Source: a virus
Lineage: Duplodnaviria > Heunggongvirae > Uroviricota > Caudoviricetes
Strand: one strand, 5' to 3'
Length of the DNA stretch: 47,041 nt
IMG/VR virus record: IMGVR_UViG_2541047923_000007
The notes under the pieces were generated by a model. The model worked only from the letters and a program-made list of their open reading frames with translations. It was not told where the DNA came from and did not search any database. This document shows positions 7,669 to 10,900 of the stretch, in pieces; within the stretch, counting starts at the first letter, position 1; the number at the start of each line of letters is the position of its first letter. The position numbers were made by a program, and so were the translations under genes.

Positions 7669-7963
7669 TTATATGGGTTATAACAATTTCAACGAATACT
7701 GATGCCGGAAGCGGCTTTTTTGGTCACAATCACCGTACAGTCGGTGATATTGCCTGCCCCCTGATTGCCTTTCTGGAAAATCTTAAACTCCAGAGTGACG
7801 CTACCACCACCACTAGGCATATCAATAACTGCACTGTAACTACCGGGAATGGCCCCTTTAGTTTCTCTGGATGCGATTAATACGCCGTTTTTGCGAACTT
7901 CAAAACCATAACCCGTGTATCGCGTGCCTCCTGGGTTATTTCCGCTCCCCGGATCGTCATACG

Positions 7964-10900
7964 CTATACCGTTAAAAATAATGGGCGGAATAATAATCTG
8001 GCGGTCAAAGTGGTGACTGTAACCGTACCGTTTGGTGTTTCCGTGTTACCCCACGTACCGACTTTTTTCGGGAAGGCTTTTGATACAGCTTTAACGAAAT
8101 CCCCTCTGACCTGGGTCGCCTCCAGCATGCCCTTAATCGTACAGTTCTGGTTAATCGTGACATTGTTGAGCGTTCCTGAGTTCGCATTCACACTACCACT
8201 GATATCCGCATTTTTAGCGGTCAGCTTTCCGTCTGATGTCAGGGAAAATACCGGAGGACTGCCACCGCTGGTAATGGTGGGGGCTGTCAGGCGCTTCAGG
8301 AACACGTCGTTCATGAATATCTGGTTGCCCTGCGCCACAAACATCGGCGTTTCATTCCCGTTTGCCGGGTCAATAAACGCGATACGGTTAGCGGCAACCA
8401 GAAACTGGCTCAGCTTGCCTTCCTCCGTGTCCTCCATGCTGAGGCCAATACCCGCGACATAATGTTTGCCGTCTTTGGTCTGCTCAATTTTGACGCCCCA
8501 CATGGCATTCCATTTATCGTTAGCGTCCTTCCACTCTTTCGAAAACTCATCCAGTCTGCTGGCGTTATCCTCCGTCAGATCAACTTTTTCCAGCAGCTCT
8601 TTACCGAGATGGGATTCGGTTATCTTGCCTTTGAAAAAATCCAGGTAACCTTCCGCATCATCGCTCGCCCGACCGACGGCCTCCACGAATGCCGATTTGC
8701 CAACGGTGTTCACACTGCGGATATAAAAGTAATAATCATGGCCCGGTTTGATATTGATACTGGCGGCTATCCAGTACAGCCCCGTGCCAAGGTAGCGGGC
8801 TGTGGTTTCAACCTGCCTGATATCGGTAATCCGCGTTTCCGAGAACCAGAACTCAAACTGTACCGTCGGATCATAAACCGCAAGATGCGGCGTGGCAGTT
8901 ATCTGAAAATAGCCCGGCGTCAGCTCAATCCGCGACGGCGCTGCCGGGGCGGCAATCCGGAACGATACCGACGCCGGATCGCCCTGCTGTCCCCGGGCAT
9001 TTACCGCCCGGACCGTCAGCGTGTAACGCCCCAGCGCCAGCTGCCTGAAGCGGTAAGTGGTTTCCGTCGTCCGGGCCGTGCTGACCAGCCGCTCACTGCC
9101 GTCATCGGCGGCCACGGTCAGGCGAAGCATAAAGCTCACACCCTTCACTACCTTCGGCGTGTCCCAGCGCGCCAGCACCTGATACTCCCCACTGTCTGCG
9201 GTGACTTCTGCGGTCAGGTGCTGCACCGCTGGCGGCGTGACACCATTCACCGTGCCGCTCTGGTCGCCGTCAAAGTGCGCTCCGTTATCCACGATGGCCT
9301 CTTTTTCCGGCACATGCTGCACGGCAGTGATGGCATACGTGCCGTCGTCGTTCTCACGGATACTCACACAGCGGAACAGGCGCTGGCGCAGCGTCGGCAG
9401 CTTCAGCCCCCACACGCTGTATCCGGCAACGCCGTCAGGAACACGGCTCACTTTCACCTTCACGCCGTCGGTGACGGACTGAACCTCCACGCTGACCGGA
9501 TTGCCACTTCCGTCAACCAGGCTTATCAGCGTGGTACCGGAGGATGGCAGCGTGATTTCACGGTCGAGCGTCAGCGTCCGGGTCTGGCTGTTCACCGCCA
9601 GCACACGCCCGCCGGTGCTGATCCCCGCATAGTCATCATCACAGATTTCAATGACATCGCCCGGTACATGGCGAAGCCCTTCTGCGCCCACGCTGAAGTC
9701 CACGGTCTGCGTCTCCAGCAGCTCCGTTTTAATCAGCCACAGCCCGGCGCGGTGTGCCTGCCCCCGGCTGGTACAGCCAAAGGCATCCATCTTCGTGACG
9801 TTACGACCATAACGGACAATGGCCTGCGTATCCTCCACAAGCTCTGTCGCCGTCTCCCAGCCGTTATTCGGGTCAATCCAGTTCACCTCAACGGCATTAT
9901 GACGGTCCTTCAGGGCGCTGAAGCTGTAGCGGAACGGCGCGCCATCATCCGGCATCACCACATTACTGCGGTTATAGGTCCACACCTTATCCGATGGCCG
10001 GTCCTGCACGAACGTCAGCGTCTGCCCGTTCCATACCGGCATACAGCGCATCGCCGAGCAGAAATCACTGAGCACATCCCACGCCTTGCGCTGCGTGGTC
10101 AGGTACGCATTACAGGTGATACGCGGTTCCGTGCCACCAAAGCCATCCGGCACCGACTGGTCGCAATTCTGGCCGATGACATACAGCGCCCATTTATCCA
10201 CATCCGCCGCACCAAGACGTTTCCCCATGCCGTAGCGCGGATGGGTCAGCATATCCCACAGACACCAGGCCATGTTGTTGCTGTATGCCGGTTGTAACGT
10301 TCCGTCCCAGATACCGCTGTATTGTCGCGTCTGCGGGTTATAGTTCGACGGCACCTGCAGAATGCGCCCGCGAAGATGATAATTACGGCTCACCTGCTGG
10401 CTGCCGAACTGCTCCGAATCCACCTGTACGCCGACCAGTGCCGTGTTCGGGTAGCACTGTTTCACATCGATGATTTCGGTGTATGACGACCAGAGCGTTT
10501 TGTTCTGCAGCTGGTCTGTGGTGCTGTCCGGCGTCATCCTGCGCATCCGGATATTGAACGGGCGCGGCGGCAGGTTACCCACCACCACCGAGGCCAGATA
10601 CTGTGAGGTGGTTTTGCCTTTAATGGTGATGTCTTTTTCCGTCACCCAGCCACCGTTACGTTGTATCTGAACCAGCAGGCGGACTTCCGACGGATTCCTG
10701 TCCCCCTTTGAGGTGGTTTCCACCAGTGCCTGCACGCCGAAGGTAAAACGCAGTCGGTCAATGTTTGCCGACGTGATGGTCCGGGTGATCGGCGTGTCGT
10801 ATTTCACTTCCGTACCCAGCACCGCCTCGGAGCCGGAGGATTCAAATCCCTCCGGCGGTGTCTGCTCCTGCTCACCGGCCCGGAACACCACCGTGACGCC

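Follow-up and report, generated by a model that had tools for sequence, protein, structure and literature searches.

Does the J gene of this prophage still encode a protein that can contact a receptor, or has its receptor-binding end been lost? The initial annotation of the locus had proposed that a frameshift detaches the C-terminus of J. Together with an amber codon in H, this was taken to indicate either a tail-defective prophage or two assembly errors. The window, by which we mean the whole 47,041-nucleotide stretch of DNA that was analysed, is a lambda-like prophage integrated in ydfJ, where Escherichia coli K-12 has its Qin prophage. The host is a clinical E. coli. The matching draft genome is GCA_000460955.1, sister to the E. 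coli UMEA 3121-1 assembly, and positions 4020-10619 of the window are 100% identical to scaffold KE702144.1 of GCA_000460955.1. The two ends of the prophage, and the fibre genes downstream of J, are as follows.

1-1284: truncated ydfJ, one prophage end, collinear with annotated prophages.
45746-47041: int (integrase), the other prophage end, collinear with annotated prophages.
3884-6961, minus strand: full-length side tail fibre gene (stf).
3309-3884, minus strand: side-fibre assembly gene (tfa).

Prophages of E. coli strains 20Ec-P-124, KE48 and FCI1 occupy the same site (ydfJ to int) and are 99.8-99.9% identical to the window across the structural and lysis genes. All three encode the same J (WP_000515698.1) and the same H (WP_000372023.1), both of which are intact, unlike those of the window. 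The tail cluster order, ending in H-M-L-K-I-J-lom-stf-tfa, is kept around the window J, both in annotated relatives and among the genes called near the exact protein. As in a defective (cryptic) lambdoid prophage, the element is integrated in the chromosome with an integrase gene at one end. The head, lysis, antitermination, replication, repressor and int/xis genes are still open at the level of reading frames.

Several other features of the map were recorded. A Pin-family invertase gene (2621-3211, plus strand) adjoins tfa and stf, the usual setting of an invertible host-range segment. Two phage-borne tRNA genes lie on the minus strand at 32263-32339 and 32440-32515. They are a tRNA-Arg(tct) and a tRNA with a CAT anticodon; ARAGORN names the second Met and the annotation of a relative names it Ile. 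The 20Ec-P-124 prophage is 99.8% identical to the window over 1-36117 and 42282-47041. The Rac-type immunity and replication module between these segments (36118-42281) has no match in this otherwise near-identical prophage. It is 99.8% identical to a module of E. coli K56-43-un (ydaT/ydaU/ydaV, DUF1627, DUF977, queH and sieB) that belongs to a different prophage, and we read this as ordinary lambdoid mosaicism. Finally, at position 30892 the window has one extra G compared with 20Ec-P-124. The position falls within a TolA-like gene (30837-31265, minus strand) that PGAP flags as frameshifted in 20Ec-P-124 and that is an open 142-aa frame in the window. Here, the damaged copy appears to be that of the relative.

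We then compared the window J with that of 20Ec-P-124 (WP_000515698.1; 3414 nt, 1137 codons plus stop, 1137 aa). The relevant features are listed below.

7689-11086, minus strand: whole J (tip attachment, central tail fibre) pseudogene, 3398 nt compared with 3414 nt in intact J.
7964-11086, minus strand: truncated J frame, ATG at 11086, TAG stop at 7964-7966, 1040 aa.
8011-8012, minus strand: deletion junction, between ACC (8014-8012) and ACT (8011-8009).
7689-8045, minus strand: orphaned frame with the rest of the receptor-binding domain.
7644-7668, minus strand: likely intrinsic terminator between J and lom, GGCACCA-GAAA-TGGTGCC then T6.

The pairwise alignment has a single gap of 16 nt and otherwise no difference in 450 nt. 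Apart from this gap, the entire window J is without differences from WP_000515698.1. Exactly 16 contiguous bases are missing, ATCAGCGATGATCATA on the coding strand. The alignment thereby pinpoints the indel between window positions 8012 and 8011, with a placement ambiguity of one nucleotide (an A). The loss takes out codons 1026-1030 together with the first base of codon 1031, and the surrounding sequence is not a homopolymer. Consequently, the truncated J frame specifies 1025 native residues, all identical to intact J, followed by 15 out-of-frame residues and the stop. As the initial annotation had described, the frame ends at 7964 after a short out-of-frame tail. The second frame, which it had taken to encode a plausible C-terminal domain of J, does encode the remainder of the protein. 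This frame, in the -1 register, opens at 8045 directly after a TAA (8048-8046) and runs for 118 codons to a stop at 7689-7691. Its translation reads ...KKAASGISIR (also written ...VIVTKKAASGISIR). Native residues 1032-1137 are encoded at 8009 to 7692, and 106 of 106 positions match intact J. The earliest start codon in the frame is an ATG at 7820, so independent translation would yield 43 aa at most.

The span from 7689 to 11086 does amount to 3398 nt (11086-7689+1). This had been taken as one base short of a gene of 1132 codons. The effect on the reading frame was correctly deduced, since 3414-16 is 3398 and the loss shifts the frame just as the loss of one base would. The size of the lesion was not, because the length of lambda J had been borrowed for a gene that is 3414 nt in relatives. 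A single-base indel is therefore rejected in favour of one 16-nt gap. We conclude that the gene is a pseudogene of the gpJ family and not a functional member. Two minor features lie nearby. The putative terminator at 7644-7668, identified by its sequence, has a counterpart in the phage 434 record, which also annotates a terminator between J and lom. A 123-aa reading frame (7509-7880, plus strand) is antisense to the 3' end of J and the start of lom; it is without support and most likely spurious.

Which parts of the protein are affected was determined by searching Pfam. In intact J, residues 1001-1136 match PF12421 (Ig_GpJ_C, 'Tip attachment protein J, C-terminal receptor binding domain'). The same search found no PF12421 match in the 1040-aa product, while the orphaned frame matches profile positions 30-134 (E=3.6e-18). 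Hence, the receptor-binding domain of J has been detached, as had been suggested from the reading frames; in relatives, the 1137 codons are continuous. The deletion cuts inside the first quarter of the domain and leaves the remainder out of frame. Conversely, the 1040-aa product keeps FNIII-A_GpJ, Phage-tail_3, Ig_J, Ig_J_second and Phage_Tail_Tip, with matches to PF24801, PF13550, PF24421, PF24489 and PF09327, each above the Pfam cut-offs. The truncated product has the gpJ architecture of an N-terminal hub with FNIII/Ig and tail-tip-fibre domains. What it does not have is a C-terminal receptor-binding domain in frame with the rest, the remnant of which lies in the -1 frame.

Among solved structures, the C-terminus of intact J can be aligned with residues 949-1131 of lambda gpJ (8IYK, 8XCJ) and with A8 gpJ (9WCA). 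The orphaned frame aligns to the C-terminal ~100 residues of the solved lambda gpJ, the alignment reaching residue 1131. Domain identity is taken from these PDB sequence matches and from Pfam; structure prediction for the 106-aa orphaned domain, run without an alignment, gave a mean pLDDT of 55.7, too low to be of use. The domain limits are those of Pfam, and the main texts of PMC11101478 and PMC12617516 give no residue boundaries. Lambda gpJ ends in an Ig-like receptor-binding domain whose loops are inserted into LamB (PMC11101478). It is the C-terminus of J that sets host specificity, and lambda carrying the 434 gene in place of its own J is redirected to OmpC (PMC3509688).

We next assessed how widespread the deletion is. 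A megablast search of complete E. coli genomes with window positions 7600-8400 returned full-length matches spanning 817 bases for the 801-base query. With a 141-bp junction query and coverage of at least 80%, the 16 nt were present in 1,757 of 5,426 complete E. coli genomes, and the deletion allele was present in none. It was also absent from the phage collection searched, and the junction string had no match in GTDB species-representative genomes. The intact junction also occurs in phages 434 and mEp460. Two GenBank draft assemblies, the source of the window and that of E. coli UMEA 3121-1, were the only ones in which the deletion was found. Likewise, in a collection of ~15 billion proteins, the exact 1040-aa protein occurs on two contigs only, both from NCBI UMEA assemblies (EQW80600.1 and EQY45633.1, 'phage tail component [Escherichia coli UMEA 3121-1]'). 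The 90% cluster of J has 8,237 members and a representative of 1137 aa; among those listed, the named shorter members are labelled partial. The protein collection lists an identical side fibre in 435 blocks. In eight of the nine places shown, the neighbouring J is 1137 aa and has PF12421; in the remaining one, on the UMEA sister scaffold, it is the 1040-aa form. Homologous J proteins that normally end at the equivalent of 7964, which would have spoken against a frameshift, were not seen; relatives keep a J of 1137 aa.

The second lesion is in the tape-measure gene.

13478-16543, minus strand: H tape-measure gene, 1021 codons in relatives, interrupted here.
14921-14923, minus strand: amber TAG in H, Gln541 to stop, codon 541 of 1021.

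Relatives annotate H as a single 3066-nt CDS. In the window it is split into reading frames of 540 aa and 459 aa, and the TAG lies in frame between the open reading frames 16573 to 14921 and 14857 to 13478. The amber codon reported initially is present. Codon 541 is CAG in the four relatives compared and TAG in the window, a single C to T change. This nonsense mutation, Q541*, is independent of the J lesion. No amber-suppressor tRNA was found among the tRNAs of the window, which are the tRNA-Arg(tct) and the CAT-anticodon tRNA only. Hence, with the J frameshift and the H amber codon, at least one essential morphogenesis gene carries an inactivating lesion.

One candidate for a further case of the amber mutation was rejected. 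ENA metagenome contig ERZ27278721 k141_7346 encodes the same 459-aa H fragment and has CAG at 14923. Its tape-measure gene is 99.2% identical and has a 1-base deletion 36 nt upstream of the amber position (window 14959), which coincidentally yields the same 459-aa C-terminal frame. Either H was damaged independently in this case, or the metagenome was misassembled.

Could the lesions have arisen during sequencing or assembly, the J of the isolate being intact and the 16-nt gap, possibly with the amber codon, being an artefact? The source is a draft scaffold. Furthermore, J-like sequences are repeated, with a median of two places per E. coli genome, and can confuse assemblers; the sister assemblies also disagree at four clustered positions in lom, adjoining J. 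However, the J deletion and the H stop both recur in the sister assembly GCA_000460215.1. Across the ~24.9 kb compared (1-24857), it differs from the window at the four lom positions only. The identical 16-nt gap is therefore seen in two separately deposited assemblies, although these possibly derive from the same strain or clone and the same pipeline and are not fully independent. In both, the sequence on either side of the gap agrees at 100% with one J allele, and the gap is outside any homopolymer. The companion amber codon is reproduced in an independent assembly of reads. This assembly, from Logan (run SRR958570), matches window positions 13065-24857 at 100% identity, amber base included; its contig covers H and ends at 13065, short of J. 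Taken together, the recurrence of the gap, its flanks, its context and the companion amber argue that the deletion is real. We consider an artefact improbable, and the suggestion of two assembly errors does not hold up well against these observations.

Accepting a real deletion, the product could in principle still function. If a programmed -1 ribosomal frameshift occurred where the frames overlap (8045-7964), it would join them to produce a working J that lacks a few residues. Lambda-like phages use -1 frameshifting elsewhere, in G-T, and in J the downstream frame is indeed -1 relative to the upstream one, with an overlap of ~80 nt. A scan of 8078-7964, covering the overlap, for an X XXY YYZ heptamer in register with the J frame found none. 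The one A-rich stretch, AAAAAAG at 8068, is not in register and lies upstream of the stop in the -1 frame (8048-8046). The two-frame layout is absent from every relative examined and private to this clone, which indicates that it has not been selected. The joined product, moreover, would still have a disrupted first strand in the receptor-binding domain. Recoding is thus extremely unlikely. A naturally short J, in a phage that relies on a different protein (for example the side tail fibre) to bind the receptor, is scarcely credible. The prophage does have a full-length side tail fibre gene and its assembly gene, and side fibres aid adsorption in Ur-lambda (PMC12617516). Yet the exact 1040-aa form is confined to the two contigs described above, and shorter members listed in its cluster are partial. 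Its 15-residue tail is out-of-frame receptor-binding-domain sequence and not a conserved ending, and the H amber codon would block tail formation regardless.

The best explanation, in which we have high confidence, is that the window is a recently inactivated, tail-defective Qin-site prophage that carries a phage-434-type J with a real 16-bp deletion and an H gene with Q541*. The J frameshift and H amber together support the tail-defective reading offered initially. The 16-bp deletion in the receptor-binding domain causes a frameshift after residue 1025, adding 15 nonsense residues before the stop. The resulting protein retains the hub, FNIII, Ig and central-fibre parts and is without the Ig-like domain that contacts the outer-membrane receptor. 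In lambda, H is required for any tail to form, while J initiates assembly of the tail tip and carries the receptor-binding domain. With H cut at 540 of 1021 residues and J lacking its receptor-binding domain, we would expect no functional tails and no adsorption. Induction would probably result in lysis, and possibly in filled heads. Infectious tailed particles would not be expected unless another prophage provided tails. The lesions may represent recent decay of a resident prophage, either neutral or favoured by the host.

The prophage may not be dead, since its head, packaging, lysis and excision genes still look open. Hence, DNA-filled heads without tails might be completed by the tails of a co-resident lambdoid prophage, a natural form of head-tail complementation. 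If so, the element would spread with a borrowed host range, like capsid-forming satellites that use the tails of a helper. We regard this as very unlikely. Substitutions in the portal protein (W195R) and the large terminase subunit (V413M) may mean that the heads are already compromised, which would count against it.

We defined window-specific changes as those absent from four relatives, with four SNPs in lom set aside. Those identified are the J deletion, H Q541*, portal W195R (22618), terL V413M (24275) and one synonymous change in L (12990). There are therefore two knock-outs and two missense changes compared with one synonymous change. With four changes that alter a protein and one that is synonymous, the pattern is in keeping with relaxed constraint for a resident prophage, although the number of mutations is very small. 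The portal and large terminase substitutions may reflect relaxed selection or additional head defects.

The four SNPs in lom (7020-7619, minus strand) are clustered at 7265, 7416, 7424 and 7427, corresponding to V119M, S68S, V66M and M65L. None of them occurs in the close relatives that were compared there, and the exact Lom protein of the window is found on a single contig in the protein collection. The cluster could be due to gene conversion from another copy of lom or to an effect of repeats on assembly. Separately, in E. coli FCI1 the portal gene is annotated as two CDSs (5928-7509). The split points to lesions or sequencing errors in further members of the lineage.

For annotation, J should be recorded as a pseudogene with a 16-bp deletion and not as a 1040-aa 'phage tail component'. 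Similarly, H should be entered as a pseudogene with a nonsense mutation. Although its gene map looks complete, the prophage should be classed as tail-defective. Such lesions commonly build up in resident prophages. Pseudogenes in a decaying prophage are already known biology and open no new question. Even so, with intact siblings for comparison, the window illustrates cleanly, on a small scale, how prophage decay begins.

The closest described counterpart of the window J is that of phage 434 (UMO75286.1, OL657226.1; the h434 host-range allele). Like the intact relative, it is 1137 aa long. The two are 97.7% identical over 1137 aa, with 133 of 137 residues identical across 1001-1137, and the orphaned frame of the window matches the 434 protein at 103 of 106 positions. 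This near-identity to the C-terminal domain of 434 J identifies the window gene as an h434-type allele. Phage 434 also shares the gene order I-J-terminator-lom-stf-tfa with the window. The two differ in that 434 J is one continuous frame that contains the 16 nt ATCAGCGATGATCATA, whereas the window copy is without them and frameshifted. By analogy with the 434 allele, the receptor of an intact J of this type would be OmpC (PMC3509688).

The relationship to lambda gpJ (PDB 8IYK, 8XCG, 8XCJ, 8XCK) is more distant at the C-terminus. Residues 1-1136 of the intact relative align with residues 1-1131 of lambda gpJ (E=0). Both proteins have, in common order, the hub, FNIII/Ig domains, helical shaft and beta-prism fibre, and a C-terminal Ig-like domain (PMC11101478). 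However, the receptor-binding domain has diverged, being of the 434 type, for which the receptor is OmpC and not LamB (PMC3509688), and in the window it is out of frame.

Other close parallels are the classical J and H amber mutants of lambda, and cryptic prophages such as Qin. A phage without functional J or H has defective tails and is non-infectious. In the window, the lesions are natural, and they are few. The Qin prophage of K-12 is far more heavily deleted, while the rest of the window prophage still looks complete.
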